In this document: one piece after another, positions 2,302 through 62,974 of the stretch | How the letters are laid out: every line of letters starts with the position of its first letter | How positions within the stretch are numbered: the first letter of the stretch is position 1 | Assembly (NCBI GenBank): GCA_964291655.2 | Contig: OZ219801.1 | Location: 544,001 to 608,000 of the forward strand | Source of the DNA: Chloroflexota bacterium | GTDB taxonomy: Bacteria > Chloroflexota > UBA11872 > VXOZ01 | Length of the DNA: 64,000 nucleotides | Reading direction: 5' to 3' | Translations under genes and position numbers: made by a program | The notes under the pieces: model-generated | Databases searched by the model: none | The model's input: the letters and a program-made list of their open reading frames with translations, nothing else | What the model was told of the DNA's origin: nothing

Positions 2302-2535
2302 GCGCAAGGGCCGGAGACGTCAACCGACAGTTACTCTCGGGTTTGCCCGGAGCAGACAATGCGGGCGTCGTCTTCCGCACGCCAATTGTGGGAGCGTAAT
2401 CTTCGGGGCACTTTCAGTGCGAACATACACTTCGGCGCACAAACGGTGCCGGCGTATTCGCGCTATACTAAGCCCTAGTCTGCGAATTGGTCACGTTGGC
2501 TCACTGTCTTGATCCGCTGCACGGAGGTCACAGCC

Positions 2536-4311
2536 ATGGCCGGCACAGCCGCATTCGATCCCATCACCTTCGAAGTCGTACGCCATGCGCTGACGGAAGC
2601 CACGGAAGAAATGGCGGTCGCGCTGCGGCGCAGCGCCTACTCCACAAACATCAAGACCCGCGCCGACTTCTCCTGCGCCTTCTTTGACCGTGACTTGAAC
2701 GTCGTGGCCCAGGCGTTTTGCCAAGCAGTGCATCTTGGCTCCCTCGTGCACCTGGTGCCGATTGCCATCCGCGCCTACGGGCCGGAAAACCTCAACCCGG
2801 GCGACGCCATTCTCTGCAACGATCCCTATCTCGGCGGGGTGCATTTGAACGACATTAGCCTCATCTCGCCGGTGTATTGTGATGGCGAGCTCTTCGGCTA
2901 TGTAGCGAATATGGCGCATCACGTGGACGTGGGCGGCGGCGCGCCGGCCAGTGTCGGTGCGTTTCGCGAAGTCTACCAGGAAGGCATCATCATTCCGCCG
3001 GTCAAGCTTGTCGCAGCCGACGAAATTGTTGATGACGTGTTCCGGCTCATCCTCGGCCAGATTCGCTCCAAGCGAGAGACGGCCGGCGACTTTCGCGCCC
3101 AGATCGCGGCTAATACCACCGGCACGCGGCGCTTGCGCGAACTAATTGCGCAGACCGGCCTCGACACGGTAAATGAGTACATCCAGGAATTGATGACCTA
3201 TGCCGAGCGCCGCACGCGGGCCGAAATAGCCAAGCTGCCGCAGGGCGAGTTCATGGCCGACGGCTACGTGGACAACGACGGCTACACCGATGAGCCCGTA
3301 CGCCTGGTTGCCAAGATAGTAATCGACGAAAACGGCGTTTTGTTCGACCTCAACGGCTGCGACCCGCAACGCCGCGCACCGGTGAACTCTACGTTTGCGC
3401 AGACCTTTTCCGCCTGCGCCTACAACCTGAAGTGCCTCATGGACCCCGACATCCCACCCAACCAAGGCTTTTACCGTATGGTGCGCATCGAAGCGCCGGA
3501 GGGCACCGTTGTGAATTGCCGTCCGCCCGCTCCTGTGGTGGGAGGCTGGGAGACCCACGCGCGCCTCAACGACGTTATCTTCAAGGCGCTGGCGCCCGTG
3601 CTGCCGGAGCGTTCGCCCGCGGGAGGCAAAGCGATGCAGTGCCACGCCGGTTTCGGCGGCATCGATCCGCGCAACGGCGAGTACTACTGTTTCCTTGAAA
3701 CTCTGGCCGGTGGGTACGGCGGCAGATTTCAAAGCGACGGCCCGGATGCCGTGCAAACCCACGGCCAAAACACTGAGAACGCCCCGATCGAAGAAACTGA
3801 ACGCTACTATCCTGTGCGCATCTTGCGTTACGAGCTTGTAGACGACTCAGAAGGTCCGGGTAAGTTTCGCGGCGGACTGGGCCTGCGCCGCGACTATGTC
3901 TTTCCCGATCATGACGTAACCTTTACCGTGCTTGCCGATAGAGACAAGGCGGGTCCCTGGGGGCTGTTTGGCGGCGAAGCCGGCCGCCCCGCCTTCTACC
4001 TCCACAAACGAGAAGGCGCAACGGAACATCTGAGCTCCAAGACGACAATCGACGTCCGTCCCGGTGAAGTCATCCGCTATGAGACCTGCGGTGGCGGCGG
4101 TCACGGCCCGCCCTGGCAGCGGGACCCGGTACGGGTGCTCAATGACGTGAGGCAAGGGAAAGTCAGCCGCGAGCGTGCGAGCGCAGCCTATGGTGTAGTC
4201 ATCGACCCAGAGCAATTGATGGTGGACTCCAATGCAACCGATGCGTTGCGCGCGGCCATGCAGGGAGAAAACCTCCAAGACGAGCGTAGTGCGAGGGGGA
4301 GTGACGCGTGA
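2536..4311 (+). CDS. Hydantoinase B / 5-oxoprolinase family protein
   Basis: DPITFEV...EEM...RSAYSTNIK..DFSCA, NDPYLGGVHLND, HHVDVGG, GPGKFRGGLG, GGGGHGPP. RBS GGAGG. Confidence 0.93.
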   Translation: MAGTAAFDPITFEVVRHALTEATEEMAVALRRSAYSTNIKTRADFSCAFFDRDLNVVAQAFCQAVHLGSLVHLVPIAIRAYGPENLNPGDAILCNDPYLGGVHLNDISLISPVYCDGELFGYVANMAHHVDVGGGAPASVGAFREVYQEGIIIPPVKLVAADEIVDDVFRLILGQIRSKRETAGDFRAQIAANTTGTRRLRELIAQTGLDTVNEYIQELMTYAERRTRAEIAKLPQGEFMADGYVDNDGYTDEPVRLVAKIVIDENGVLFDLNGCDPQRRAPVNSTFAQTFSACAYNLKCLMDPDIPPNQGFYRMVRIEAPEGTVVNCRPPAPVVGGWETHARLNDVIFKALAPVLPERSPAGGKAMQCHAGFGGIDPRNGEYYCFLETLAGGYGGRFQSDGPDAVQTHGQNTENAPIEETERYYPVRILRYELVDDSEGPGKFRGGLGLRRDYVFPDHDVTFTVLADRDKAGPWGLFGGEAGRPAFYLHKREGATEHLSSKTTIDVRPGEVIRYETCGGGGHGPPWQRDPVRVLNDVRQGKVSRERASAAYGVVIDPEQLMVDSNATDALRAAMQGENLQDERSARGSDA

Positions 4312-6413
4312 GTGCGGCAAGATTTCGGCTCGGCGTTGACATTGGTGGTACGTTCACCGACGCCACATTGATGGATGAGAGCACCGGCCGTCTTTGGAAC
4401 GCCAAAGTTTCCTCGACCCCAACCGACCCGGCGCAGGGCTTTCTCTCCGCGACCCGGCGCATTCTGGAAGATTCCAAGTTGGCTCCCGCGTCACTGCGCT
4501 ACGTCGTCCACGCGACCACCGTGGCGACGAATGCCATCATCGAGGGCAAAGTCGCGCCCACTGTGCTCATCACGACCGAGGGCTTTCGCGACATCCTGGA
4601 GATTGCCCGCCAGATTCGTCCTTCGCTCTATGACACGCAGTTTGAGAAACCGATACCCCTCGTACCGCGCGATCGCTGCTTCGGCGTGCGCGAGCGCCTG
4701 GACGCTAACGGCGCCGTCATTACCCCATTGGACGAAGGCGCCATTCCGCACATCGCTGCCACCATCAAGGAAGCGGCGGTAGAGTCCATAGCCGTCTGCT
4801 TCTTGCATTCCTACCTAAACGCGCAACATGAGCAGCGCGTCGGTGAATTACTGCGAGACCTCGCACCGGACATTGCCATCTCCCTTTCCTCCGACGTAGC
4901 GCCGGAAATCAGGGAGTACTTTCGCGCCAGCACTACGGTCATCAATGCCGCGCTACGTCCAATCGTCTCGCGCTACCTTGAAAACATCGAGGAGCAACTG
5001 CGCGCGCAAGACATTCAGTCAGAACTCTTGGTGATGCAAAGCAGCGGCGGGCTCATGACATTTGCCGACGCGCGCCGCAGACCCGTCTTCATGGTGGAGT
5101 CCGGCCCGGCTGCGGGCGTAATCACGGCGGCACACCTGGGTGAGGCATTGGATTACAGAAATGTCATCTCTTTCGATATGGGCGGCACCACCGCCAAGGT
5201 GGGTCTCGTCCAAGACGGCACGCCGCGCATAACCAAAGACTATGAGGTTGGCTCTGTGGCCCAGCCGGGGAGCGGCGGCTTTCGCGCCGGAGGGTACCCC
5301 ATCCGCACGCCAGTGATCGATCTGGTGGAAATCGGCGCCGGCGGCGGCTCTATCGCTTGGATTGATTCTGGTGGCGTGTTGCGGGTTGGGCCCCAAAGCG
5401 CGGGCGCCGTTCCAGGACCCGCCTGCTACGGTCGCGGCGGCGGTGAGCCGACAGTAACCGATGCCAACCTCGTATTGGGCCGTCTCAATCCCGGCTACTT
5501 GCTTGGCGGCGACCTCAAGCTGGATAGCGCGCTTGCGCATGCGGCAATCGAGGAACACATTGCCAACCCGCTAGGCTTGGACGTGGTGAAAGCCGCCCAC
5601 AGCATCGTCGAAATCGCCAACGTGGCGATGATCAACGCGCTGCGTCTCGTCTCGGTGCAACGCGGCCATGATCCGCGAGACTTTGCGCTCACTGCTTTTG
5701 GCGGGGCCGGACCGCTGCACGCCAACCGCTTGGCGCACGAAATGAACATCCCCGTCACCGTTATTCCCACCAGTCCGGGCACAGCCTCGGCGCTGGGCCT
5801 CCTGGTCACGGACATTACCTATGACTATGCCACGACACTCATTGAGCGAGTTGACCGCCTCCCACCAGGGAGAGTGGCGGAAGTATTCGCAGATCTCCGT
5901 AACCAGGGCACGGAGGCTCTTACCGCCGCAGGCGTAGCTCCGGCCGATATGGCTTTCGTGCAGCAGGTGGACTTACGCTACGTCGGCCAAAGCTACGAGC
6001 TCACGTTACCTTGTTCCGATGGCGATGCCGCCGACTTCGCCGTAACCGATCTCCTGGATGACTTTCATGCAGAGCACAACCGCGTTTACGGCCATAGCGT
6101 TCCCGGCGAGCCGGTGGAGACAGTGAACCTGCGACTGACCGCACTTGGCACCATCGTCAAGCCGCCGCTGCTTGCTAAGGATCCAGGTATGCATGCTGTA
6201 CAGGCTGCCCGGCTTGGCAGCCGTCCGGTCTTCTTCGGTGAAGCGAATGACTTCGTGGACTGCCCAATCTTTGATCGCTACCTGCTCAACGCAGGAATCG
6301 AGATTCTCGGCCCCGCAATCATAGAGGAGTACGATTCTACGACCGTAATTCATCCTAAATACTACGCAGTGGTCGATCAATACGGTACACTACTAGTGAC
6401 CCACGTAAGCTGA
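4308..6413 (+). CDS. Hydantoinase A / 5-oxoprolinase family protein (ATP-binding subunit)
   Basis: GVDIGGTFTD, HATTVATNA, ESGPAAG, DMGGTT, GAGGGS, PTVTDANLVLG. GTGA overlap with the upstream gene. Confidence 0.94.
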   Translation: MSAARFRLGVDIGGTFTDATLMDESTGRLWNAKVSSTPTDPAQGFLSATRRILEDSKLAPASLRYVVHATTVATNAIIEGKVAPTVLITTEGFRDILEIARQIRPSLYDTQFEKPIPLVPRDRCFGVRERLDANGAVITPLDEGAIPHIAATIKEAAVESIAVCFLHSYLNAQHEQRVGELLRDLAPDIAISLSSDVAPEIREYFRASTTVINAALRPIVSRYLENIEEQLRAQDIQSELLVMQSSGGLMTFADARRRPVFMVESGPAAGVITAAHLGEALDYRNVISFDMGGTTAKVGLVQDGTPRITKDYEVGSVAQPGSGGFRAGGYPIRTPVIDLVEIGAGGGSIAWIDSGGVLRVGPQSAGAVPGPACYGRGGGEPTVTDANLVLGRLNPGYLLGGDLKLDSALAHAAIEEHIANPLGLDVVKAAHSIVEIANVAMINALRLVSVQRGHDPRDFALTAFGGAGPLHANRLAHEMNIPVTVIPTSPGTASALGLLVTDITYDYATTLIERVDRLPPGRVAEVFADLRNQGTEALTAAGVAPADMAFVQQVDLRYVGQSYELTLPCSDGDAADFAVTDLLDDFHAEHNRVYGHSVPGEPVETVNLRLTALGTIVKPPLLAKDPGMHAVQAARLGSRPVFFGEANDFVDCPIFDRYLLNAGIEILGPAIIEEYDSTTVIHPKYYAVVDQYGTLLVTHVS

Positions 6414-6489
6414 CAGGAAGCTGAAAAAGAGTACACGCTGGGTATTGTCGGTGAATTCATCAAATCTCCAGTAGTAATTGAGGACGCTC

Positions 6490-7668
6490 ATGGCGGAGAC
6501 TGCCGATGTCGTTGTAATTGGAGGCGGGAGCACCGGTACCAGTATTGCTTGGCAACTGGCAAAGATGGGCGCCGGCCGGGTGGTCTTGCTCGAAAAGCAC
6601 GGTCTTGCTGCCCAGGCCACCGGCGTCACCGCGGGGATCGTCCGCACGCATTATACCCATGAGACTCTCGCACGCATGGCTCTGCGCGCGCGGCAGGTTT
6701 TTGAGAACTTCAACGACGAAGTCGGCGGCGATGCTGGCTTTCGGCAAGCCGGCTTCCTCGCGTTGCTGGGCTCGGACGATGTCGAGACGGTTGCCGCAAA
6801 CGTCGCTATGCACCGCGATCTTGGCATCAATGCCTACATACTCTCGCCGGACGACATTCGAGACGTGGAGCCGCGCCTGGCGTTATTCGGTATTGGCGCC
6901 GCCGCCTGGGAACCGGAATCCGGGTATGCCGACCCGGTTCGCACCACCCTCAGTTTTGCGGATGCTGCCCGTCGGCACGGCGCCGACCTCCGCATTGGCG
7001 TGGGAGCAGAGGGGTTCTTGGCGGATGCAAGCGGCATCGTAGGTGTCGAGACCAACACCGGCCAGATTGCGACACGCTCGGTCGTGGTCGCCAACGGTTT
7101 CTCCGCACGCGGCTTGGTAGCGCCCCTTGGTATCGAGCTCCCTCTCACACCGATACGGCATGGGGTGGCATTCATGCAGCGGGCGAATCACTTTGGCAAA
7201 CCACATCCCATCATTTCCGATCGCGTACAAGGGAGCTACTACCGCCCCCGCGAGGACGGTCACACAATGGTCGGCAAGACCGCACCGTATGACGGGGATG
7301 AAGATCCGGACGTCAATGCTTGGCCCGCCGCGCGGCCTGAAATGCTCCAGACTCTTGCTGAGCGGTACCGACGGCGGTTTCCCAATCAAGGTGCGCCCGC
7401 CGTCAACAGCGCCACGTCCGGCCTGTACGACTGTTCGCCGGACCTGCAGCCGCTGCTCGGCACCGTGCCTGACGCGCCGGGCCTGCACCTTGCCGTTGGG
7501 CTCAGCGGCCATGGTTTCAAACTTAGTCCCATCTTCAGTCAGATGCTGGCTGAGCAATTGCTCACAGGCAGCAGTTCGGTCTTCGATATCGAGATGTTCA
7601 ATCCGGCACGCTTCATCCAGGAACGACGAATTGTACCGCACCACGCATACTCTATTTCAACACTTTAG
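6490..7668 (+). CDS. FAD-dependent oxidoreductase (DAO / sarcosine oxidase beta-like)
   Basis: DVVVIGGGSTG Rossmann motif, GYADP, GLYDCSPDLQPLLG, GLSGHGFKLSP. Confidence 0.9.
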   Translation: MAETADVVVIGGGSTGTSIAWQLAKMGAGRVVLLEKHGLAAQATGVTAGIVRTHYTHETLARMALRARQVFENFNDEVGGDAGFRQAGFLALLGSDDVETVAANVAMHRDLGINAYILSPDDIRDVEPRLALFGIGAAAWEPESGYADPVRTTLSFADAARRHGADLRIGVGAEGFLADASGIVGVETNTGQIATRSVVVANGFSARGLVAPLGIELPLTPIRHGVAFMQRANHFGKPHPIISDRVQGSYYRPREDGHTMVGKTAPYDGDEDPDVNAWPAARPEMLQTLAERYRRRFPNQGAPAVNSATSGLYDCSPDLQPLLGTVPDAPGLHLAVGLSGHGFKLSPIFSQMLAEQLLTGSSSVFDIEMFNPARFIQERRIVPHHAYSISTL

Positions 7669-48746: not shown

Positions 48747-49622
48747 CTATCGCGCGTTAATGAAAACAATGGCAAACATGCCGAGAACGATGCCGGTGGC
48801 CGTGAGTCGTCCAAACCGCTCGCCAAAGAGCACCATGCCACCAATTAAAGTCGTTGCCAAGCCCACGGTTGCCGCCAGCGGAAACACGATCGTGCCGGGG
48901 AGGACCTCCAGCGCGCGGAGCAGCATGGCAATCTGAAAGAGGTTGGCTGCACCCATCAATACACCTAAGCCGATGTTGTGCCGCAGCGAAGCGGTCCTCC
49001 ATTCCGGCAAGCGGAAACGCTTGCGCAAGGGCCACACAAACGCGGCGCCCAAGGTTGCGGTCACGAACACGGAAGCGGTGTAGAGCGGTTGATACTCCGG
49101 TGTGCTCCACACGGCAAATGCTTTTGCCGCGGTAAATCCCACCCCGGAAAGAACTAGCACCACCAGCAACACACTCCACGTCCGCAGCGAGTGCCCGCGT
49201 CCGTTGCGCGCCGCCTGGTGCGCATCCGCACCCAACAGCGGCAAAGCTACGAACGCGAGCGCGAGACCGACCACTTGGAGCGCGGCCGGCTGCTCCCCCC
49301 ACAAAAAGACCGACGCCAGCGTTGGCAACGCGATTGAAAGACGAATGATGCCAAACGTAACACCAATACCGACGAGCTCTACTACCGTAAACAGCACCGC
49401 CAGGCTGATCTGGTATTGGAGTCCGTTGATAGCTCCCAAGACAATTACGCGCACGTCCAGGTCGGGAATACCGTTCAGCACCGCCCAGGTGACAGCCAAC
49501 AGGGCCGCTACCGCATAGTTGATAGTTCCTACGGTCAAATAGTGGTACTGCTTGCCCCGCGCCAGGCGCAGTGACATGGCAAACACAAAGTTGCCGAAGA
49601 CTTGACCGGCAATGAATATCAT
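48747..49622 (-). CDS. DMT/EamA family transporter
   Basis: About 10 TM helices with two LWGE/LFGE repeats; ATGA overlap with the upstream oxidoreductase. Confidence 0.8.
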   Translation of the reverse strand: MIFIAGQVFGNFVFAMSLRLARGKQYHYLTVGTINYAVAALLAVTWAVLNGIPDLDVRVIVLGAINGLQYQISLAVLFTVVELVGIGVTFGIIRLSIALPTLASVFLWGEQPAALQVVGLALAFVALPLLGADAHQAARNGRGHSLRTWSVLLVVLVLSGVGFTAAKAFAVWSTPEYQPLYTASVFVTATLGAAFVWPLRKRFRLPEWRTASLRHNIGLGVLMGAANLFQIAMLLRALEVLPGTIVFPLAATVGLATTLIGGMVLFGERFGRLTATGIVLGMFAIVFINAR

Positions 49623-52876: not shown

Positions 52877-54055
52877 ATGAGCGCCGTCGATGCCAGCCGC
52901 ATACAAGCAACCGCAGACCTCCTTTCCGCCCTCGTCAGCATTCCGAGCATGAATCCGGCCTTTATGGCCGATGGCTCCGGCGGCGAGAGTGGGCTTGCCG
53001 ACTTCGTGGAGTCCCAGCTACAGGACCTCGGCATGGAGACTCAGCAACACGAAGTGCTGCCGGGGCGGTCTAACGTCTTCGGCCGGCTGCGCGTGCCCAA
53101 CTCCAAGGGTCTGTTGCTCTTCGAGTGCCACATGGACACGGTCGGCGTAGATACATGGGGGCCGGAAGCCTTGGAGCCACGGGTGGACGGGACTACGCTG
53201 CACGGGCGGGGCTCCTGCGATGCCAAGGGCTGCCTGGCCGGCATGATACTGGCCATCCGCGAACTGGCAAAGCACCCGGAAGACCTTGACTATGACATTG
53301 GGTTGCTCGGCGTCGTTGATGAAGAATACCGCTTTCGCGGCATCGTCGGCTTCATAGAGCAAGGGATTGAAGTAACGGCAGCGGTGATTGGCGAACCAAC
53401 AAGGCTTGAGCTGGTGACCGCCACGAAAGGCGCGGTGCGCTTCACGCTGCAAACCAAGGGCAGGCCCGCCCATAGCAGCCAGCCTGAACGGGGCAATAAC
53501 GCGATCTACCAGATGGTCGACGTTATTCACCACTTGCGCGAAACGCTGGACCCGCGCTTCGCGGCGCGCTCACATGCGCTGGTAGGGTATCCCACCTGGG
53601 CCATCGGCATCATCCACGGCGGCCACGCGGCAAATGTCATTCCGGAGACCTGCGAGGTGGTGGTGGACCGCCGCATCATTCCAGGTGAGACTTCGGAGGG
53701 GTCAATCCGGGAATTCGAAGAGGCCATGGAGCAACTCGCGGCAACCAAGCCGGACCTGCATCCCAGTGTCGCTTCGCGCGACCTCGCCGATTGGCCGCTG
53801 GATACCGCGGAAGATGAGGCAATCGTGCAAGCCGCCATGCGCGCACTGCGGGCGCACAACCTCCCACCGGAGCCGCAGGGCGTGACCTACGGCACGGACG
53901 CCAGCAAGCTGCAAGTCAAGAGCGGCGTGCCCTGCATCGTCTATGGCCCCGGCGACATTGGCTACGCCCACACCGACCACGAGCGCGTCGACCTCACCGA
54001 AGTCGTCCAAAGCGCCGACGTCTACGCCCAAATCGCCCGCGAGTTCAAGCCCTAG
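52877..54055 (+). CDS. M20 metallopeptidase (ArgE/DapE family)
   Basis: HMDTV, GRGSCDAKG, DEE, GEPT, AHSSQP, GTDAS, AHTDHE. Confidence 0.92.
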   Translation: MSAVDASRIQATADLLSALVSIPSMNPAFMADGSGGESGLADFVESQLQDLGMETQQHEVLPGRSNVFGRLRVPNSKGLLLFECHMDTVGVDTWGPEALEPRVDGTTLHGRGSCDAKGCLAGMILAIRELAKHPEDLDYDIGLLGVVDEEYRFRGIVGFIEQGIEVTAAVIGEPTRLELVTATKGAVRFTLQTKGRPAHSSQPERGNNAIYQMVDVIHHLRETLDPRFAARSHALVGYPTWAIGIIHGGHAANVIPETCEVVVDRRIIPGETSEGSIREFEEAMEQLAATKPDLHPSVASRDLADWPLDTAEDEAIVQAAMRALRAHNLPPEPQGVTYGTDASKLQVKSGVPCIVYGPGDIGYAHTDHERVDLTEVVQSADVYAQIAREFKP

Positions 54056-54283
54056 TGTTCCTTCGCGCAAGAGGAATGTGTCAGTCGTACCTGGAACGCT
54101 TCCAGCTAGCAATGGTGCAGTTTTCCGTCATTTGTATGTTGAATAAGGTCAGGAAATGAGCGCATAAAAACGGTTACGCAAGGTCGCGTCGTCCGTCATC
54201 CCCGCGAAATCGGGAATCCATCTTCTGAACCACCGCGCTGCAAGCTAGCAGCAAGACAATCTATTAGAATCGCACACTAAGCC

Positions 54284-55597
54284 TCACGTCTCCAAACTCT
54301 CGGAGAGCACGGAGCAGGCTTGGTTGACCGCGGAAGTCACCTCATCGCCGCGCACGAGCGCCTCCACTATGTTCCTCATCGCGCGAGATTGCCCCACATC
54401 TGACGGCAGTGCTCGCCCATGCTCCATCGAATGCTGTATAGCCACGACTTCATCGGGTTGGATAGTCGATCGGTTATCTAGGAGCCGCGCCACGGCTTCT
54501 CTCTCTGTTGGTACGTTGACGTACGGTTCCATTGTATGCAACAGTCCTCTCAACGCAGTGTATGCTGCCTCGGGATTGGAAGTTTTTGCGACAATCGCAA
54601 TACCTGCATACGATTCGACCGGAACACTTAGCACTTTGCCCCGGGCCAGTTCTGCCCGGCGATAATTGTCGCTGGGCGACCCGAAAGGGATAGTGTCGTA
54701 TACCATCGCCGGAGGCGACCCCGCCGAAGGGTGAATGAGATTCAATAGATCAGCACCGCTAGCCGGTGGAGATACGTGGTGTAAATGTATCAGATCGCGA
54801 AAAAACTCAAGCGCTTCGATAGCAACCGGTTCCTGCAATCGACACTGCGACGAAATCGCGTCAATCATCTCCGCTTGATTCTGCCAAAGGGCCCACCAGA
54901 TGGTCCAATTGTGCGTTGCCAATCCCCAACGCGATATTGTGCCTCCCTCTCCTCGCTCTGTTAGCTTGAGCGCTTTGTCGACCAAGTCATTCCAGTCCCA
55001 AGTACCATCTGGTGGCGGGATTCCCAACTTCGCAAAGTAATCAACATCGTAGAAGAGCATCAGAGGGAACGAGTCCGTCGGTAGGGCGTAAAGCGCACCA
55101 CTCTCTCGAAACACATCCAGGACGGGCGAATAGAATTCCCGTTCAAAGTCTGAGCTATCTGCACCGCCGAACTGGTCCAGGGGCAGTAGTACACCCATTT
55201 CCCCTAACACGCGCGCCTCATCATGCCATACTGTCACGAGGTCGGCGCCAATTTCTCCCAGCCACGCCGCCAAATGCTCCGATTTGCGGTACAGTTCTGC
55301 ATCAGGATCTGAATAGGACCCAGCATAGTGCTCGTAGTATTCCAGTGCGAGACTGTACCGGCCTCCCGCCGGGCCATACTGGCTTCCATCATAGTCTGCC
55401 AATTCTTGCTCTATCCGACGGAGCTTTTCCTCAAAAGACTCATTACCGGACCCAGTGTTGAGACCTGTAATTGGGCGGGAGAGCCAGGTCAATGGAACCG
55501 GACGTGGCGCGCCTAGGAGTGGCAGAGAAAAATCCAGACCGCCACAGCCAGCCGCGAGAACAGCAGCGCTACCAATAATCGCTCGGCGAGTTAGCAT
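54284..55597 (-). CDS. Extracellular solute-binding lipoprotein (Tat), paralog 1
   Basis: MLTRRAII...LAAGC; LLPLD, LYALP, LFYDVDYF, WDWNDL; RBS AAGGAGG. Confidence 0.82.
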   Translation of the reverse strand: MLTRRAIIGSAAVLAAGCGGLDFSLPLLGAPRPVPLTWLSRPITGLNTGSGNESFEEKLRRIEQELADYDGSQYGPAGGRYSLALEYYEHYAGSYSDPDAELYRKSEHLAAWLGEIGADLVTVWHDEARVLGEMGVLLPLDQFGGADSSDFEREFYSPVLDVFRESGALYALPTDSFPLMLFYDVDYFAKLGIPPPDGTWDWNDLVDKALKLTERGEGGTISRWGLATHNWTIWWALWQNQAEMIDAISSQCRLQEPVAIEALEFFRDLIHLHHVSPPASGADLLNLIHPSAGSPPAMVYDTIPFGSPSDNYRRAELARGKVLSVPVESYAGIAIVAKTSNPEAAYTALRGLLHTMEPYVNVPTEREAVARLLDNRSTIQPDEVVAIQHSMEHGRALPSDVGQSRAMRNIVEALVRGDEVTSAVNQACSVLSESLET

Positions 55598-55619
55598 GGC
55601 GGTCCTCCTTCGCCGGCCT

Positions 55620-56906
55620 TCAGGCTTGCTGGTACTCACGGGCGACGGCACAGGCCTCGTTGACCACACTAGCCACTTCATCGCCATGTACGATGCCCTG
55701 GAGCGCTGAGTCCATCGCGAACAGCGCCGGCACGCTCCGTGGCCAAGCGCGTCCATGTTCCATGGACCGCTGTATTGCTAGGACATCTTCGGGGTGAAGG
55801 TCCGACCGAGTTTCTTCCAGCCGGGCTATGGGATCTCTCTTGGCAGGGACCACCACATGCTCCTGCAAGGCGTCGACAAGTCCCTTAAGGGCAGTATACG
55901 CCGCTTGAGGGTTCTCAGTTCGCGCGACAATGCCAATCCCCATGTCACCATACACGGGAACGCTGTGCACTTTGCCCCGCGGCAACTCGGCTAGGTGATA
56001 GTGTCCCGGCGGGCGTATAGGAGGACTGCTATACACTATGGCCGGCGCGAATCTTGCCGGCTCGAATACAAGCTTCGCTAGGTCCATGTACAGGGCCGCA
56101 GGTGAGACACGATGCGTGTGCAGCAAGCTGTGCGCGAACTGCAGGGATGTGATAGCGGCCGGTTCCTGCAGCCGACACTGCAACGTCACGGGATCTACGG
56201 CCTCCGCCTCGTTCTGCCATAGTGCCCACCAGAGTTGGCTACCGTGCGCCGCCAATCCCCAGCGCGTTACTGAACCGTCTTCCCTGCGCTTGGTCAGCCT
56301 TAGCGCGCTCTCCACCAGATCACTCCAGTCCCAATTACCGTCTACCGGCGGTGAGACCTCCTCCAACGCGAAGTAATCGGCGTCGTAGTAGAGCATCAGC
56401 GGACGGGCGTCCACCGGCAGCGCGTAGAGCTCTCCCTGCCGAAATTGCTCCACCACGCTGGGGTAGAAGGCCTGTTCTAGGGCGGCGCCATCGGTTGCAA
56501 TGAACTGGTCTAATGGCAGCAACACGCCCTCTTCCCCGAGCGCCCGCGCACCTTCCGGTGACACATTCACAAGATCTGCCTCTAGGTCGTGCAGCCAGTC
56601 AACGAACGTCTCCTCGCCTAACTCCGATGTCTTTTCCACGTGCCGCAGCGTAAGATGATACTTGCCGCGCTTCTGGCCATTAGAGTTCCCATTGTCTTCC
56701 TCCAGCGTTGTCACCGCCTTTTGAAGTTTTTCCACAGGTCGCAGTCCATTCCCCGTGAGATCGCTAAGGCCAAGATGGTTCCCAAGAGAGATCCAGGTTA
56801 GCTCGGCCCCTTGCGGTGCGCTTGGCGCGGAAAAGAAAGACCCAAGAGGGCCACAACCGGCTGCGAGCACCGCCGCGCTGGCGATCACTGTTCGTCGTGA
56901 AAGCAT
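55620..56906 (-). CDS. Extracellular solute-binding lipoprotein (Tat), paralog 2
   Basis: MLSRRTVI...LAAGC; same motifs as paralog 1; RBS AAGGAG. Confidence 0.82.
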   Translation of the reverse strand: MLSRRTVIASAAVLAAGCGPLGSFFSAPSAPQGAELTWISLGNHLGLSDLTGNGLRPVEKLQKAVTTLEEDNGNSNGQKRGKYHLTLRHVEKTSELGEETFVDWLHDLEADLVNVSPEGARALGEEGVLLPLDQFIATDGAALEQAFYPSVVEQFRQGELYALPVDARPLMLYYDADYFALEEVSPPVDGNWDWSDLVESALRLTKRREDGSVTRWGLAAHGSQLWWALWQNEAEAVDPVTLQCRLQEPAAITSLQFAHSLLHTHRVSPAALYMDLAKLVFEPARFAPAIVYSSPPIRPPGHYHLAELPRGKVHSVPVYGDMGIGIVARTENPQAAYTALKGLVDALQEHVVVPAKRDPIARLEETRSDLHPEDVLAIQRSMEHGRAWPRSVPALFAMDSALQGIVHGDEVASVVNEACAVAREYQQA

Positions 56907-56984
56907 TGTCTCGCTCCTTTTATGCCTATGACAAACGAGTCTTGCCACTTTGGCCTAGAAGTGCCCATTATGCCTGAATAATCA

Positions 56985-57026
56985 GAGCGCCCGCACAAAG
57001 CCTTCGCAACTTCCGCGCAGGCGCTC
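56985..57026 (-). terminator. RNA hairpin downstream of the Cys-rich peptide gene
   Basis: 12-bp stem GAGCGCCTGCGC/GTGCGGGCGCTC, fully paired only on the minus strand (G-U pairs). Confidence 0.55.
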
Positions 57027-57075
57027 CAATCCTACCTAAACCTGAGGTCATGCGGATATGCCCGGCGTACTTAAA

Positions 57076-57417
57076 CTACGCACTTGGGCACGGTCTGTTT
57101 GGGATTATGCAACCGCAACCTCCGTAGTAAGTCTTCGTCGGGCAAGTCTTCCCGGTATAGCAGTTCTCGCCCTCTACCCTCTTAACATACGGCCTCTTGC
57201 TAGAGTGGCAACGCTCGCCGCAGGAGCCGCAGAATGTGGTGGTGTTAGTTACACAGAAATGGCTCCCGTCGCAATGATCAGCATAGGCCGCTCTAGTGAA
57301 CAACACAGAGAGTACGGCAGCACCACCAACGGCACCAGCAACTCTCCCCAGAAAGCCGCGGCGATTCATGCTAGCTTTCGCCAGGCTCTCGCTCGCTTGC
57401 GCAATCAACTTATCCAT
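57076..57417 (-). CDS. Tat-exported 10-Cys mini-protein with MauA-like leader
   Basis: RBS GGGAGG; NRRGFL Tat motif, AYA cleavage site; 67-aa mature region with 10 Cys and no Trp. Confidence 0.85.
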   Translation of the reverse strand: MDKLIAQASESLAKASMNRRGFLGRVAGAVGGAAVLSVLFTRAAYADHCDGSHFCVTNTTTFCGSCGERCHSSKRPYVKRVEGENCYTGKTCPTKTYYGGCGCIIPNRPCPSA

Positions 57418-57517
57418 GGGTTTACCTCCCATGTGTTGCCTGCATTGCGTCTTGAGATGCGACTCATGCGCGGGGCGTCGTCACGCTGCGGTGTGAGCAC
57501 GCACAGGTAGACGGACG

Positions 57518-58090
57518 TTACCCGCTCACACTCTTTGGCGAACTGCCGGTCGTCGCATCTTTAGCGAGCAGCTCGCCTAGCACATGCACATCATTCACCA
57601 CCCCCTTTTCGGCTACATTTCCTTCCACATCCACGACAAAGCCGAACGGCGTCCAGCTACTGCCGTAGAGGTCGGCAATCTCATGCTCCTGCTGGATGAC
57701 CAGCGGCCACGAGAGCTTGAATTCATCCACCATCTCTTGGTTCTGCTCCCGGCTGCCGCCGCTCACGAGCATCAAAATCACATCTTGCGCTTCAATACGA
57801 TCCGCTTCTCCGTTTAGGCTTGCGAAAAGCTCTTTGCAGGGCGGGCAGGTGGGATGGACGAAGAGCACCAGCAGGCGCTCGCCGATCATGGTCTCCAGGT
57901 CTACAGTCCCATTGAGACCCTCGCCCTGGAAGAGCGGCGCTTGGCTGCCGACGGCAAGTCCCATGTCAGGCTCTTCCCCGACCCGCAATCTCAGTTCGCC
58001 GATTTGCCGCATGAGGCCGATGACGATGAAGGCAAGCAGGCCGATAAAGACCCACTGCAGGAGGTACGATGCGAGCCAGATGCCTTCCAT
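57518..58090 (-). CDS. MauD-like membrane-anchored thioredoxin-fold protein
   Basis: N-terminal TM, RQIG, G..VG..AP.F, FVHPTCPPCK, TPFGFVVD..G...KGVVN. Confidence 0.85.
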   Translation of the reverse strand: MEGIWLASYLLQWVFIGLLAFIVIGLMRQIGELRLRVGEEPDMGLAVGSQAPLFQGEGLNGTVDLETMIGERLLVLFVHPTCPPCKELFASLNGEADRIEAQDVILMLVSGGSREQNQEMVDEFKLSWPLVIQQEHEIADLYGSSWTPFGFVVDVEGNVAEKGVVNDVHVLGELLAKDATTGSSPKSVSG

Positions 58091-58201
58091 GTCTGTCGCC
58101 TCCGGTCTAGGTCCACTTTGGTTGAGACTCTAATGCGCCCTACTTGCCAATCCAGTGAAGATGGATTCCCGCTATCGCGGGAGTGACGGACCCCACTACC
58201 C

Positions 58202-58738
58202 CTAACGTGACTGAGAAATCGTGCGCAGTCGCAGGAACTCGGCGACTACGAGAGCTACAGCCCAAGCGCCTACCGTGAATACGACAACCCCAGCGAGGCC
58301 ACGCAAATTGCCGTCCAATTCTTCTGAAAGCAACGGTATTGGTCTGGCCGTAAGTACCAACAGCCCGAGCAATACAAGAACTGCAACTTGCTTGAAAATT
58401 GTGGCCTTGCCCAGGGGTTGGCCCCCCGCTCCGAAGCAGTAGCAATCAATACCGCCCCGCCCTTGCGTGAGAGCGAGCGATGAAACCGCGAGAAAGAGCG
58501 AGACGAGGCCGATTCCCAGCCAGACCCCCCACATCACCGCCATGCCAGTGATGAGCAGGGAGCCACAGAGGAGTTCTAACAAAGGAATTGCGCCGCTCAG
58601 GTATGGAAGCGCGCGAGGAGGCACGACGCCAAATCCGTGCACCGCAGCCTCAAATTCAGCAAGGTGCAGTAGCTTGGCGGCGGGCAGAAATACACCGCCC
58701 ACGAACAGTTGGAGCCTGAGTATGCCACCCTGTACCAT
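58202..58738 (-). CDS. MauE/DoxX family membrane protein
   Basis: GGVFL..AKL, PLLEL..G.LL, GIDCYCFG; ATG 58738 after GGAAGGAG. Confidence 0.85.
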   Translation of the reverse strand: MVQGGILRLQLFVGGVFLPAAKLLHLAEFEAAVHGFGVVPPRALPYLSGAIPLLELLCGSLLITGMAVMWGVWLGIGLVSLFLAVSSLALTQGRGGIDCYCFGAGGQPLGKATIFKQVAVLVLLGLLVLTARPIPLLSEELDGNLRGLAGVVVFTVGAWAVALVVAEFLRLRTISQSR

Positions 58739-58820
58739 TGGGCCGCTCCTTCCGCTCCGCGAAGGGCCGACGACATACCTGCCTTGTACTATCGTATTGA
58801 GGGACATCCATATCAATACT

Positions 58821-58848
58821 AGCATATCATTGTTAGGCTGTATGTCAA
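58821..58848 (-). promoter_or_regulatory. Sigma70-type promoter for the mauE-like operon
   Basis: TTGACA-16 nt-TATGCT with TG extension, in an AT-rich region. Confidence 0.5.
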
Positions 58849-59001
58849 CCTTACAAATGATAGAACTAAACCGGTCTTATTGAGTATTACAAAACTACAC
58901 TTGCGGTACAGGGCATGTATCGAGAATAGACTTGCGGGGCCGGAGCCGTGCAAGGGGAGGGGACAGATACCGAGCTCAAGTCTTGAGTCTCGCCCGGTGG
59001 C

Positions 59002-59763
59002 CTACGAGTCAAGCTGGGGTGGGGGGAGAAGTTGCTGGATGTGCGCCATGGCGGCGTCGACGTGGCGCTTGCCGTCTTGCAAGCTGAAGCTCACGTGGCC
59101 GGGGAAGAACTGCGTGAATTCCAGTTTGGCAAAGCGCTTTACGGTGGCGATGGATTCCTCTAGCGAGCAATCCCAGATGTTCTGGAGTAGGATGCGCCCG
59201 CCGAAGAAGAGGGCGTCGCCGCAAAAGAGAGCGCGGTTCAGGCCGTCTCCGGGGCTCGCGCCGTCATCTACTAAGAACGCCAGATGGCCCTGGCTATGCC
59301 CATCGGCCTTCACGACCGTCACAGCGAGGGAACCCAAACGAATAACGTCTCCATCGGAGGCATCGGTCGCGGACGCCACCGGCCGCAAGCGGTTTTCTAC
59401 CGGATACATACCGGTCTGACGCGCGGCCACCAGGCTCGCGGCCTCTTCATCACCCGTCTCAAGCCATCCTGCCACGTCGTGGGAAGCGACAATCTCGGCG
59501 CCACACAGTTGCTGCAATTCCGCCGCGCCGCCGGCATGATCGAGGTGCAGATGCGTGATGAAAATCTTTGAAATGTCGCTGGGACCAAAACCTGCCGCCT
59601 CTATCTGGTCCACAATCGCCGGCACGTCTCTGCCCACGCCGGTGTCAATGAGTGCCAGCTCCGTACCGCCGTCCAACAGATACACATGGCAATCCAACGG
59701 GTGGGTAAGGCTGAATCCGTTCTGGCCGCTACCAACGAGATGAACGGTATCCGTGAGCTGCAT
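59002..59763 (-). CDS. MBL-fold metallo-hydrolase
   Basis: LIDTG, THLHLDH, GHSQGH, FCGD, FPGH. Confidence 0.92.
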   Translation of the reverse strand: MQLTDTVHLVGSGQNGFSLTHPLDCHVYLLDGGTELALIDTGVGRDVPAIVDQIEAAGFGPSDISKIFITHLHLDHAGGAAELQQLCGAEIVASHDVAGWLETGDEEAASLVAARQTGMYPVENRLRPVASATDASDGDVIRLGSLAVTVVKADGHSQGHLAFLVDDGASPGDGLNRALFCGDALFFGGRILLQNIWDCSLEESIATVKRFAKLEFTQFFPGHVSFSLQDGKRHVDAAMAHIQQLLPPPQLDS

Positions 59764-59861
59764 GAGACAATCTCTTTCTAGCGGGTGCCTAGGCGTTTAC
59801 TTGCGAACCAATCGGCTTCAGGCCGGACCGGCGCTACTTCCCCCTCACCCCAACCCTCTCC

Positions 59862-60046
59862 CCAGGGAGAGAGAGTTTTTTCGACTTCAGGCTTGCGTCT
59901 TGCAATGGTATTCCAGGGAGATTGTTTCCACTCGACTTCAGGGCTGGATTCTGAAGTAGCCTCCCCAGGAGAGGAAGTTTCATTGGCTTCAGGCCTGAGC
60001 GATTCAGATCAGTTTCAAGGTGAGGGGGTCAGTTCAATCTCAGGCC
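59862..60046. repeat. Degenerate 51-nt tandem repeat (4 units) following a REP palindrome
   Basis: Units start at ~59862, 59913, 59964 and 60015, each CCAGG(G)AGA...TCAGG. Confidence 0.55.
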
Positions 60047-60154
60047 CAAGTCGTGCATGAGCCCCTGAATGGGATAGCACAATGCCACTTGCTAACCCAG
60101 GTACTGCAGAGCTTGTCCCGCACCTGGAACACGAGGCTCCCGCCAAAGAGTCAC

Positions 60155-60664
60155 TCAGCGGCGAATGAGACGAAAGAGCACGTAGCAGAGACCGATGACG
60201 AGACCGCAGATCGCCGCGCCGCGGGTATCGAGAAGCGTGTTGACGTTGCCATTCACGCGACCGCCGACCACCACCACGCTGGCCACCTGCTCAGCTTCGA
60301 TCTGCCCGCCGACGATCCACTGCGACACGGAGTAGTTCGTATCCACGCTGCCGCCAACCACCAACCACGTCGCCCCTTCGGTCACGCTCACTTCATGGCC
60401 GGCTGCGATCCCAGTCAGCCCTTGCTGCAGCGACGCAGCCTCCGCCTGCACGACGCCGGTAGCCGTGTTCTGCATGTCGATATCATCGGCGACCACGTGC
60501 CGCACGAGGCTGTTCGTGATTTGAAACCGTTCATCAACTTCCGGTGCGTTTCCGGCAGCCTGTTGATCGCCGTCACTCATTGCTTCTTGAGAAGCGTCTT
60601 CCGAAACGTCATTGCCTGCCGGCGCCTGTTCCGGCCGCACCTCAGAAGACCCCATATTCGGCAC
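60155..60664 (-). CDS. Hypothetical protein with C-terminal TM
   Basis: Acidic N-terminus, Val/Gly beta-rich middle, hydrophobic C-terminus; same strand as larC. Confidence 0.6.
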   Translation of the reverse strand: MPNMGSSEVRPEQAPAGNDVSEDASQEAMSDGDQQAAGNAPEVDERFQITNSLVRHVVADDIDMQNTATGVVQAEAASLQQGLTGIAAGHEVSVTEGATWLVVGGSVDTNYSVSQWIVGGQIEAEQVASVVVVGGRVNGNVNTLLDTRGAAICGLVIGLCYVLFRLIRR

Positions 60665-60769: not shown

Positions 60770-61936
60770 CTACTGTCCCGCTGTCCGCACAAAGTCCATT
60801 ACCTCTTTTACCGGCACCTGTGCCGCCGTAGCGACCCGCAGGCAGTCCTCGTACTCGGGACTACGATTCACAACCTTGCCGCGCCAATGCGCCACTTTGC
60901 GGCGCACCGTGCCCCACGGCGTATCCACGTGCTCTACCTGCCGTTCAAGCTTGATCCGCTCGACCCGATGCAGCCGCACGCCAATCGTCGTAGTCTCTCG
61001 AAAGACTATGTCCAGGAGAGGCGCATGGTCTGCGGCCTCCGTTAGCACGCTGAGCACGTGCCCGGGCCGTCCTTTCTTCATTTGGACCGGGGTCAGCGTC
61101 ACATCCAGCGCGCCGGCTGCAAACAAGAGCGCGGCAACATGTCCATACAACTGCGGATTCATATCGTCGATGGTGGTCTCGATCACAGTCGCCATGCCAG
61201 TAGCGTTACCAGCAGACTCCTCCCCGATGATGAGGCGCAAGACGTTGGGAATATCAGTGTCGCGCATACCCGCGCCGTAGCCAATGCGGTCCACCTGCAT
61301 TGTTGGTATGGGGCCGAATGCGTCCGCTAACTCGCTGAGCACGAGCGCCCCGGTGGGAGTGAGCGTCTCGCCCATGTCCGGTATGGCATAGATTGGCTTC
61401 TCCTTCATGAGATCCAGCGTCGCCGGACCCGGAATCGGCCACCAGCCGTGACGGGTCTGAATAGGGGGGCTGCCGCCGACGTTCACCGGCGAGCAAACAA
61501 CGCGCTCAACGCCGAGCGCCTTCAGTCCCGCGACCACACCAACTACGTCGAGTATAGAGTCCACCGCGCCGACTTCATGAAAATGCACGGCCTCCGGCGC
61601 AACCCCGTGCATACGGCCCTCTACTTCTGCTAACCGGACAAAGAGCCTCTCGCTCGTAGCAACAACGTCGTCTTCCAGATTACTCGTTTTGAGCAGTTGC
61701 ACGATATCGCCGAGATTACGTTCTACCTTGTGCTCGTGTGCATCGATGTCGATGTGAACTTGCAGGGCACGGAGCAAACCCTTGCGCACCTCTTCCGCCC
61801 GAACTTCGTAGCCGCCGAGCGGGATCTTGGCAAAGGTCGCCTTGAGGTCCTCCAGCGCCCACCCGCCATCTACCAGAGCGCCAAGCATCATATCGCCCGA
61901 GGCGCCGGCAAAGCAGTCGAAATAGGCTATTCGCAT
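60770..61936 (-). CDS. larC: Nickel pincer cofactor biosynthesis protein LarC
   Basis: YFDCFAGASGDM, HFHEVGAVDSILD, TPTGA, ETTIDD, MKKGRPG, ETTTIGVR, PEYED. Confidence 0.95.
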   Translation of the reverse strand: MRIAYFDCFAGASGDMMLGALVDGGWALEDLKATFAKIPLGGYEVRAEEVRKGLLRALQVHIDIDAHEHKVERNLGDIVQLLKTSNLEDDVVATSERLFVRLAEVEGRMHGVAPEAVHFHEVGAVDSILDVVGVVAGLKALGVERVVCSPVNVGGSPPIQTRHGWWPIPGPATLDLMKEKPIYAIPDMGETLTPTGALVLSELADAFGPIPTMQVDRIGYGAGMRDTDIPNVLRLIIGEESAGNATGMATVIETTIDDMNPQLYGHVAALLFAAGALDVTLTPVQMKKGRPGHVLSVLTEAADHAPLLDIVFRETTTIGVRLHRVERIKLERQVEHVDTPWGTVRRKVAHWRGKVVNRSPEYEDCLRVATAAQVPVKEVMDFVRTAGQ

Positions 61937-62709
61937 GACGAATCCTGGACGCTGTCTGCTTCCGTCATGCGGCAGATCATACCGGCCATATATCCTGCGC
62001 CAAAGCCATTATCGATATTCACGACAGCGAGCCCGGCCGCACAGCTATTGAGCATGGTGAGGAGCGGCGTCAGTCCACCGAGCGAGGCCCCGTACCCCAC
62101 ACTCGTCGGCACGGCAATGACGGGTCGATCGATCAGACCGGCAAGCACGCTTGGCAGCGCGCCCTCCATGCCTGCCACGGCGACCACGGCACGGGCCTGC
62201 TGCACAGTTTCGAGGTTGAGCAAGAGCCGGTGCAGCCCGGCCACACCCACATCTGTCAATCGATCAACTCGGCACCCCATCAGCTCCGCCGTTAAGCTGG
62301 CTTCAGCAGCTACCGGCAGGTCGGCCGTGCCTGCAGCGACTACTGCTACCCGTCCCTCTGCCAGGCGCTGCATTTCGCGGCGGACGACGATGGCGCGGGC
62401 GTCTTCATGGTACACGGCAGCCGGAATCCGCGCGTTCACGTCCGCAAAGAGTTGCGGTGTTGCGCGTGTGGCCAGGACGGTTTGATCATGGGCGAGCAAC
62501 TCCTCGGCAATGCCGATGACTTGTGCCGATGTCTTACCCGGACAGTAGATAACCTCCGGGAAGCCAACCCGCAGTTGGCGTTGCGCGTCTACCTTGGCGA
62601 ATCCCAAGTCCTCGTAGGGAGCCAACCGTATCCGGCGTACCACCTGCTCTATGTCTACGGTCCCACGTTGCAAGTCCGTGAGCAGCGTGCGTAATGTGTT
62701 TGTGTCCAT
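61927..62709 (-). CDS. larB: Nickel pincer cofactor biosynthesis protein LarB
   Basis: GFPEVIYCPGKT, AGTADLPVA, DVGVAGLHR, AGMEGAL, PTSVGYG, VNIDNGFGA. Confidence 0.95.
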   Translation of the reverse strand: MDTNTLRTLLTDLQRGTVDIEQVVRRIRLAPYEDLGFAKVDAQRQLRVGFPEVIYCPGKTSAQVIGIAEELLAHDQTVLATRATPQLFADVNARIPAAVYHEDARAIVVRREMQRLAEGRVAVVAAGTADLPVAAEASLTAELMGCRVDRLTDVGVAGLHRLLLNLETVQQARAVVAVAGMEGALPSVLAGLIDRPVIAVPTSVGYGASLGGLTPLLTMLNSCAAGLAVVNIDNGFGAGYMAGMICRMTEADSVQDSSCE

Positions 62710-62974
62710 CAGGGGAACACCAGACTCCAATGCGTTCAATCACTTTTCCAAGCAACAATGTGGCGATACTTGCGTCACTCGCCGCAACGACTATTGTAGC
62801 GCAGGCCGTCTTGTGCCAGAGGCGCAACACATCTACAGAGCAATTGCCCAAGCGGGCAAGCAAAGTTCGGGAACAGCAGATGCGAGTTAGTATCCAGCTC
62901 CCTGGCTGGACACCCCAAGGTCACATACCGGCTTGAGCACAGCCGCGATCACAGCACTCTTCGGTCGTGCAGGT

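Follow-up and report, generated by a model that had tools for sequence, protein, structure and literature searches.

Which protein do MauE and MauD serve in a genome in which the methylamine dehydrogenase small subunit, MauA, is not found? This question is raised by a stretch of 64,000 nt from a Chloroflexota bacterium (contig OZ219801.1, assembly GCA_964291655.2; genome completeness 97.55%), which we call the window and whose positions serve as coordinates throughout. A co-oriented string of minus-strand genes at 58848-54284 encodes a MauE-like membrane protein, a MauD-like thioredoxin-fold protein, a small protein with ten cysteines behind a twin-arginine translocation (Tat) signal, and two Tat lipoproteins that resemble solute-binding proteins (SBPs). 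On balance, we favor reading this string as a five-gene operon made of a constant and a variable module, in which the oxidative folding of a polymorphic, secreted disulfide mini-protein falls to a module dedicated to it and the adjacent lipoprotein is the likely partner of the mini-protein. An earlier sequence-only reading of the window had ended the operon at the hairpin behind the small gene; however, two genes for Tat lipoproteins of the SBP_bac_1 type (56906..55620 and 55597..54284) follow that hairpin.

The small open reading frame (ORF; 57076-57417, minus strand) encodes a 113-aa precursor and has a strong ribosome-binding site, GGGAGG, 7-8 nt upstream of its start at 57417. A longer, 118-aa ORF starts inside that ribosome-binding site. 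The first 46 codons (57280-57417, minus strand) form a Tat signal peptide with an 18-residue n-region, the motif NRRGFLG, an h-region and, at its end, an AYA cleavage motif. Its score against TIGR01409, 17.5 bits versus a cut-off of 16.7, is a generic Tat match. The remaining 67 codons and the stop codon (57076-57279, minus strand) make up the mature mini-protein, a hypervariable core with 10 Cys and no Trp. The sequence-only reading had named the precursor, its ribosome-binding site and the composition of its mature part, and all are present. The small protein has no Pfam family.

We collected relatives of the small protein using a word-indexed search of 5.8 billion proteins, which returned 36. 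An exhaustive HMMER search of 1.84 billion cluster representatives gave only 11 matches at E ≤ 0.001, and no longer fused forms of the protein were found at E ≤ 0.001. One protein (P0016, 181 aa), which looks like a gene-call fusion, was left out of the family alignment (A1). The leader is nearly invariant across the family, beginning with MDKLIANASVGLAKAGMNRRGFLGRLARA and placing 18 residues before the twin arginine; R19, R20, G21 and F22 of the NRRGFLG motif are invariant. In the core, C49, C55 and a G-x-x-C-Y-T-G stretch are kept as anchors, and the rest varies freely. The sequence-only reading had proposed comparing mauE-mauD neighborhoods, and this conserved Tat leader with a variable Cys-rich core is what the comparison gave. 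Among 22 ORFs taken from the loci, the Cys count is 8 in seven, 10 in 14 and 12 in one. The database proteins, which overlap these 22 ORFs, have 8 or 10 Cys in 32/35 cases; the exceptions are P0007, P0035 and P0040, whose C-termini, like those of P0005 and P0038, diverge in the manner of frameshifted or truncated gene calls. Such even Cys counts at shifting positions fit disulfides, not fixed metal ligands.

AlphaFold2, run with a 36-row alignment, predicted the mature part as a domain with three strands at a predicted local distance difference test (pLDDT) score of ~88-93, and the signal peptide at a score below 50. A Foldseek search of this model against the PDB gave 0 matches at E ≤ 0.001, and the best match, the defensin-like bacteriocin laterosporulin10, was non-significant at E 0.47. 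A search of the ESM Atlas for look-alikes of the mature part gave no usable match. Next, we compared the core between close pairs of the same type. The ratio of nonsynonymous to synonymous change (dN/dS) was 0.11-0.42 in 7/9 pairs; of the other two, one had a ratio of 0.99 on four changes and one had no changes. These ratios indicate purifying selection on the core rather than decay, so that the decayed fragment which the sequence-only reading had offered as its own refutation does not hold. The small ORF is not a chance ORF, since it has 36 relatives, a core dN/dS below 1 in 7/9 pairs and a mature part predicted at a pLDDT of ~88-93.

The helper genes suggest a comparison with methylamine dehydrogenase. 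The order mauE-mauD-mauA is reportedly found in the methylamine dehydrogenase clusters of Paracoccus denitrificans, as van der Palen is said to have described in 1997. In such clusters the same helper pair adjoins a small, disulfide-rich client with a Tat signal; the MauE here is a member of the same Pfam family, and the MauD-like protein matches the architecture over its full length. However, the client here is not MauA. The hidden Markov model search against methylamine dehydrogenase small-subunit models that had been proposed from the sequence was run, and the small protein had no match to PF02975 or TIGR02659 at E ≤ 1. The two Trp required for the tryptophan tryptophylquinone (TTQ) cofactor are lacking, with 0 Trp in the mature part, and no amine dehydrogenase light chain was among the PDB profile matches or the fold matches of the small protein. 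The absence of MauA, MauG and MauB, claimed for the window, extends to the genome: no match was found for MauA (PF02975), for MauG (CCP_MauG, PF03150) or for MauB (PF06433), although for PF06433 the positive control also gave no signal. Additionally, the MauD-like protein scores below its equivalog cut-off, and the client here is polymorphic and multi-copy.

The small protein might nonetheless be a redox subunit that bears a cofactor, either a quinone cofactor like that of MauA or, as a Tat-exported protein, a metal or Fe-S center. MauE and MauD accompany the small gene, Tat export is typical of cofactor-containing proteins, and the window copy contains a CGERCH stretch, at which a heme- or metal-binding role had been left open. 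That site was rejected, as the stretch is not conserved in the family alignment and its His varies across the family. The number of Cys (8, 10 or 12) and their positions also vary, no ferredoxin-type motif is present, and a profile search of solved structures in the PDB matched only the Tat signals of NosZ and similar proteins. Together with the lack of Trp, of a PF02975 or TIGR02659 match and of MauA and MauG in the genome, this makes a cofactor-bearing subunit very improbable.

The MauE-like and MauD-like proteins that had been recognized from their CxC and CPPC motifs were both borne out by profile searches. The MauE-like ORF (58202-58825, minus strand, as the longest ORF) passes PF07291 with 65.4 bits against a cut-off of 27 over residues 38-158. 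It carries the motif CYCFG (IDCYCFGAGG), the loop position of which was judged by eye from the hydrophobic stretches. Upstream is a match to a sigma-70-like promoter (58821-58848, minus strand; TTGACA-16-TATGCT with an upstream TG, 10/12 matches), which agrees with the promoter claimed earlier and is a consensus match only; 7 promoter-like sites occur in the region versus 2.2 expected from shuffles. The true start of the MauE-like protein is likely the ATG at 58738, which has AAGGAG upstream, because the longest ORF, starting at 58825, overlaps the -10 hexamer. This MauE is the sole match in the genome above the Pfam cut-off; a weak second match in the window (48753-48953) lies inside an EamA-type transporter and was set aside as irrelevant.

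The MauD-like ORF (57518-58090, minus strand) encodes a 190-aa protein with an N-terminal hydrophobic anchor and a CPPC motif, and matches AhpC-TSA (54.8 bits) and Redoxin (35.8 bits). It aligns with TIGR02661 over residues 6-180 of 190 at 62.3 bits, below the equivalog cut-off of 188.6, and we therefore call it MauD-like rather than MauD. Two related loci have altered copies of the helper genes. In L011 (4103-5896) the MauD-like gene is split into parts encoding residues 1-93 and 78-190 that lie ~1.2 kb apart in an insertion-like arrangement, and L012 has no mauE, and its mauD, truncated to residues 59-190, lies directly against a metallo-beta-lactamase-fold (MBL-fold) gene. Tat carries folded proteins, and the genome encodes a TatC (211.6 bits). 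It also encodes a DsbB elsewhere (50.5 bits); VKOR was not found in the genome. Since DsbB is present elsewhere, the MauE/MauD pair is an extra disulfide system, additional to the housekeeping DsbB, and not the cell's sole disulfide route.

We then considered the distribution of these genes, sampling each species of the class with a single genome (98 in all, the window's own among them). Within the class, the small family is confined to the window's genus, where it occurs in 11/16 other species; it was found in 0/81 genomes of the 19 other genera. The number of small genes per genome ranges from 0 to 8. One of the eight in the richest genome (G097:C1:3008226-3008552) has an in-frame TGA and may belong to a pseudogene cassette. 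The MauD-like protein, at ~80% identity, occurs in 10 of the same 16 species; the 5 species without the small gene, all ≥97% complete, do not have it either. One distant MauD-like match, at 31% identity, was found in another genus. A scan of 185,579 species genomes located 16 loci with the small family, all in metagenome-assembled genomes titled Chloroflexota; a further locus, L019 (Tropicimonas), matched the Tat signal alone and was dropped from all counts.

The presence of DsbB elsewhere in the genome, together with the co-occurrence of the small gene and the MauD-like gene, makes it highly probable that MauE and MauD are dedicated to folding this exported disulfide mini-protein. The proposal that MauDE has been repurposed to fold and export a Cys-rich mini-protein is supported to that extent, with the order of the cassette pointing the same way. 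MauE and MauD would act as a dedicated pair in the roles of DsbB and DsbA: the CXC loop of MauE, with quinone, would generate disulfides and reoxidize the CPPC of MauD. The 113-aa precursor would go through Tat by virtue of its twin-arginine signal, with its unusually conserved 18-residue n-region, and would be cut after AYA. MauD could then introduce five disulfides, locking the 67-aa core into a small, beta-rich fold.

In a recent preprint, the CXC-FG motif of MauE is presented as an active site able to replace DsbB, with the CXC loop placed on the periplasmic side (Gonzalez et al., bioRxiv 10.64898/2026.03.05.709764). The proteins described in the accessible part of that preprint resemble ours in carrying CXC and then FG in the loop that comes after the third membrane segment, and in that MauE occurs without MauA. 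Going by the same part, the MauE here differs in being accessory within its genus and paired with MauD and one client family, in having Tyr rather than Gly or Ala as the X of CXC, and in coexisting with DsbB, so that it looks dedicated rather than generalist. The preprint, as far as its accessible part goes, argues for MauE as a generalist, and the pair might thus serve the envelope at large, or the SBP lipoproteins, with the small protein as one substrate among many; indeed, C244 and C419 in the mature part are invariant in 33 of these SBPs. However, MauE and MauD are missing from 5/16 species, all of which keep 3-10 SBP copies, the presence of MauD matches that of the small gene, and a DsbB exists elsewhere in the genome. 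We consider such a general function quite unlikely, and continue with the dedicated pair.

Directly behind the small gene lie the genes for lipoprotein 1 (55620-56906, minus strand), with the signal MLSRRTVIASAAVLAAGC, and its paralogue lipoprotein 2 (54284-55597, minus strand), which is ~50% identical to it. Both match SBP_bac_1 (55.2 and 67.2 bits versus a cut-off of 26) and begin with what look like Tat-type lipoprotein signals. Among solved structures, the closest relative is a protein that binds arabino-oligosaccharides (E 9e-12). No ABC permease gene adjoins the operon. The window's genome has five further copies of the SBP subfamily, without a small gene, in three places (C2:2528920-2533163, C2:1140812-1142137 and C2:1718528-1719847), and no ABC permease lies beside these, judged from the first residues of the neighboring ORFs. 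The subfamily members therefore look like orphan binding proteins. The subfamily is present in 16/16 other species of the genus, in 2 to at least 18 copies and often as tandem genes. At E ≤ 1e-50 it was found in 0/81 genomes from the other genera of the class.

The link between the small gene and these lipoproteins recurs across loci. A full MauD-like gene is followed by a small gene and an SBP gene in 11 loci including the window; most of these also have MauE before the MauD-like gene, and some have an MBL gene upstream. Similar cassettes had been predicted from the window, and the order mauE-mauD-small in the full cassettes matches that expectation. An SBP paralogue lies within ~250 nt 3' of the small gene in 23/23 copies in L003-L018, as it does in the window copy, and in the copies examined the mini-protein gene always adjoins a lipoprotein gene. 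A specialized clade of SBPs that follow small genes was looked for and rejected: the SBP tree has 14 label changes versus a shuffled mean of ~16, a count in which a few of the 'no_small' labels are wrong (L007_6493 and L004_2956, for example, do follow small genes).

The way in which the cassette varies suggests that the core and the first lipoprotein form one unit. Across 21 copies, nucleotide identity is 0.8-0.95 from the mauD 3' end through spacer and leader, drops to 0.3-0.5 for the core and for the spacer downstream of it, and recovers at the SBP signal peptide. Amino-acid identity is 0.77 in the leader and 0.39 in the core. At four-fold degenerate sites, MauD and MauE have identities of 0.76 and 0.71, the leader has 0.52-0.56, the SBP 0.47 and the core 0.37-0.40; therefore, the variable part is old at silent sites too and does not just reflect faster protein change. 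In the 11 full cassettes (55 pairs), the Spearman correlation of identities is 0.75 between the core and the next SBP, versus -0.12 between core and MauD and -0.09 between SBP and MauD. When 22 distinct cassettes are compared (231 pairs), core and SBP correlate at 0.63, a value reached by 0/2000 label permutations, and at 0.60 after removal of pairs with a core identity of ≥0.8. Where a second SBP is present (45 pairs), the core correlates at 0.68 with the first and at 0.42 with the second. Individual mosaics show the same pattern. Between L005 and L006, synonymous divergence (dS) is 0.024 in the core, 0.24 in the SBP and 0.58 in the leader, and the window and L003 are 94-96% identical in core and SBP and only 83% in MauD. 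These comparisons indicate that the core and the adjacent lipoprotein diversify together, independently of mauE and mauD, and we regard a modular, recombining cassette as quite probable.

Several genomes carry arrays of such cassettes. One genome contains two of them, in each of which a single MauD-like gene heads four small genes and seven or more SBP genes. In front of most of the extra small genes, 28-42 codons of the mauD 3' end remain, and therefore the duplicated unit comprises the mauD 3' end, the spacer, the small gene, the hairpin and the SBP gene or genes. The hairpin itself is a long stem-loop without a U tail at ~56980-57031 on the minus strand (~57031..56980), as had been noticed 3' of the small gene. 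Its 70-nt window has a folding energy of -35.8 kcal/mol, compared with -24.4 ± 2.8 kcal/mol for shuffles. A hairpin is present in 22/22 distinct spacers between small and SBP genes, with energies of -30 to -50 kcal/mol versus -21 to -27 kcal/mol (standard deviation ~3) for shuffles, even as the sequence of these spacers is poorly conserved. A genome-wide repeat was rejected as an explanation, as the window hairpin matches only itself in the genome. We infer that the hairpin is a transcript-stabilizing or attenuating element behind a highly expressed small gene, which could set a high ratio of small-gene to lipoprotein transcript. The variable module would thus consist of the core, the transcript hairpin and an orphan SBP-fold Tat lipoprotein, diversifying together and swapped by recombination with breakpoints in the conserved block of mauD 3' end, spacer and leader. 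Such recombination would leave one folding module at the head of an array of additional client cassettes.

It is less clear what the mini-protein and the lipoprotein do. On the reading proposed here, the mature mini-protein would interact with the neighboring lipoprotein on the cell surface, either as a bacteriocin-like peptide with the lipoprotein as immunity or receptor partner or as one half of a strain-recognition pair. These roles are suggested by the accessory, polymorphic and cassette-forming pattern, which is typical of such systems. That the lipoprotein is the physical partner of the mini-protein is plausible, though we rate it slightly below an even chance, and a role in competition or immunity is a tentative and rather doubtful suggestion. 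A complex prediction for mini-protein residues 47-113 with lipoprotein 1 residues 19-428 scored 0.00 in both runs, in which no controls were folded, and weighs neither for nor against the pairing.

Several observations weigh against parts of this picture. The subfamily SBPs also occur, in 3-10 copies, in the five species without the small gene, and near-identical SBPs occur with and without a small gene in front; therefore, the lipoproteins do not depend on the mini-protein. On the SBP tree, 102-124 of 500 shuffles had as few as 14 label changes. The correlation between core and SBP could reflect physical linkage alone, and a 430-aa protein of the SBP fold would be an unusual immunity protein. 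Pairwise dN/dS gave no sign of positive selection on the core. For the folding pair, one genome (G084, 95% complete) has the small gene and no MauD-like match, and the anchor of the MauD-like protein has a K+R count of 0 before the membrane segment and 3 (Arg) after it, so that the thioredoxin domain might act on either side of the membrane.

The mini-protein could instead act on another target as a host- or prey-directed effector, such as a knottin-like protease inhibitor, an adhesin, a carbohydrate-binding module or a free antimicrobial peptide, with the lipoprotein genes just linked to it. In size, in disulfide density and in having a hypervariable core it is like such effectors, its best structural match is the non-significant one to laterosporulin10 given above, SBPs exist independently of the small gene, and other Chloroflexota MauE-MauD-small cassettes showed no relative of the SBP nearby. 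Yet an SBP paralogue follows 24/24 copies, identity in the core correlates better with the first SBP than with the second, and an unrelated MauE-MauD-small cassette in another genus of the class (G065) also has a downstream Tat-lipoprotein SBP. We judge an external effector unlikely. Extending our preferred reading, the mini-proteins and SBP lipoproteins may form cognate pairs, of the toxin-immunity or the kin-recognition ligand-receptor kind, that are shuffled as units; MauE/MauD and a Tat leader with an n-region of ~18 residues could then mark a widespread client pathway of which MauA is one specialized member. This extension is speculative, and we would give it about one chance in a few.

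Candidate peptides of a similar kind have been proposed by decRiPPter, which searches for peptides synthesized ribosomally and modified post-translationally (RiPPs). The part of that study available describes three candidate families in Streptomyces (Kloosterman et al. 2020, PMC7794033). All three have mauE and precursors containing 8 or more Cys, and one has mauD as well. As described there, these families share with our locus a precursor with at least 8 Cys that adjoins mauE/mauD without other mau genes, and the window locus has the same combination, with no MauA or MauG found in its genome. The phylum differs, and the likeness is one of description. In the part available, a Tat signal, a link to lipoproteins and cassette arrays are not described. 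The small protein might likewise be a RiPP precursor that receives modifications beyond disulfides: its leader is conserved and its core variable, a hairpin lies 3' of its gene, and the Streptomyces families, as far as described, offer a precedent. Against this, the conserved cassette contains no gene for a modifying enzyme, peptidase or exporter, the leader is a Tat signal peptide with an AxA cleavage motif, and the core is predicted to be a folded domain. A RiPP in this wider sense is thus a long shot.

Two other systems are useful for comparison with the dedicated folding module that we favor. The sublancin operon of Bacillus subtilis SPbeta includes the dedicated thiol-disulfide oxidoreductases BdbA and BdbB, so that a secreted disulfide peptide is encoded with its own thioredoxin-like protein and membrane oxidase. 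Its membrane oxidase is a DsbB-like enzyme, its export is by an ABC exporter with a peptidase domain, the peptide is glycosylated, and the immunity protein is not SBP-like. Conotoxin-type and polymorphic toxin families combine a conserved signal with a hypervariable core on a Cys framework, and their cassettes are duplicated and exchanged at a conserved 5' block. They differ from the family here in their known toxicity, and pairwise dN/dS is below 1 here.

The sequence-only reading had called the system undescribed, which stands in part. Literature searches found no description of the Chloroflexota small family or of the lipoprotein link; the sponge 'srp' RiPPs, considered as relatives, are unrelated NHLP proteusins and were rejected. 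The general kind, a Mau-type folding pair with a Cys-rich client other than MauA, has already been proposed in print, as the available parts of two sources show (PMC7794033; 10.64898/2026.03.05.709764). New here are the genus-restricted family, the split into a constant and a variable module, the obligatory co-varying SBP-fold lipoprotein, the arrays with mauD remnants and the conserved hairpin.

The architecture also appears elsewhere in the phylum with other small proteins. MauE is patchy there, matching in 89/401 sampled genomes (87/399 without the unpublished G301 and G228). We surveyed the best 30 MauE loci with ~1.5 kb of flank each, and six of them (L027, L031, L033 with two ORFs, L034, L035 and L045) contain unrelated small Tat-type ORFs with 12-16 Cys. 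These ORFs belong to no Pfam or NCBIfam family and gave Tat-signal and sub-threshold matches only. With larger flanks, a MauD-like gene was seen to be adjacent in four of these lineages, in the order MauE-MauD-small in G001, G006 and G098. The number of residues before RR or RK is 18 in 6/9 leaders compared and 16 in one; the starts of the other two are uncertain. Unrelated Tat-signal Cys-rich ORFs lie beside MauE in at least five other lineages of Chloroflexota, which suggests a general architecture.

Some further distant loci have additional features. L024 (G065:C1:4009000-4022000), at 1714-7187 on the minus strand, encodes MauE, MauD, a 97-aa ORF with 8 Cys, an S26 signal peptidase and a Tat-lipoprotein SBP. 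The 97-aa ORF has an RR and no hydrophobic h-region, a 629-aa ABC exporter and a LuxR-type regulator are encoded nearby, and the cassette may be a non-Tat version of the same logic. In L056 (6788-8419) and L057 (5453-7036), MauE is fused to one or more thioredoxin-like domains in proteins of 527-543 aa that adjoin Tat-signal ORFs with 12-16 Cys. L033/L057 has two tandem 100-aa copies with a sub-threshold, conotoxin-like Cys spacing.

The remainder of the window locus consists of repeats and unrelated neighbors. The mauE-mauD spacer is 111 nt long and contains a palindrome resembling repetitive extragenic palindromic (REP) elements, GGATTCCCGC-N4-GCGGGAGTGAC (58163-58187, plus strand). In the form GGATTCCCGC-N4-GCGGGA(A/G)TGAC with ≤2 mismatches, it has 68 copies in the genome, 34 per strand, and the reversed control has 0. 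It is a genome-wide repeat and is not specific to the cassette. Contigs of four metagenome runs from one study, from which this DNA probably came, gave one identical contig per run, with no variants at the locus. A depth spike at 58136-58299 in these contigs was attributed to the REP-like element, and an apparent joint of 54226 to 58156, one side of which had just 26 letters, was dismissed as repeat noise. No Rfam families were found in 53500-60500 at E ≤ 0.1. The flanks are unrelated to the cassette. Directly upstream is an MBL-fold gene (59002-59763, minus strand), which has 77-87% identity in 6 related loci and is absent from other cassette locations. Farther upstream, within 60770-62739, are a LarC gene (PF01969) and an AIR-carboxylase/LarB-like gene, and an M20 peptidase gene lies downstream on the other strand.

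In summary of what the locus offers, the small-protein family adds a protein family for which Pfam and NCBIfam have no model. MauE and MauD, a pair whose role has long been unclear, gain a defined client other than MauA that is small and easy to express, and this client is suited to testing how Tat export squares with a disulfide-dependent fold. Finally, the core and its lipoprotein, as a recombining unit, could be tested as a candidate system by which strains of an uncultured genus of Chloroflexota compete with or recognize each other.

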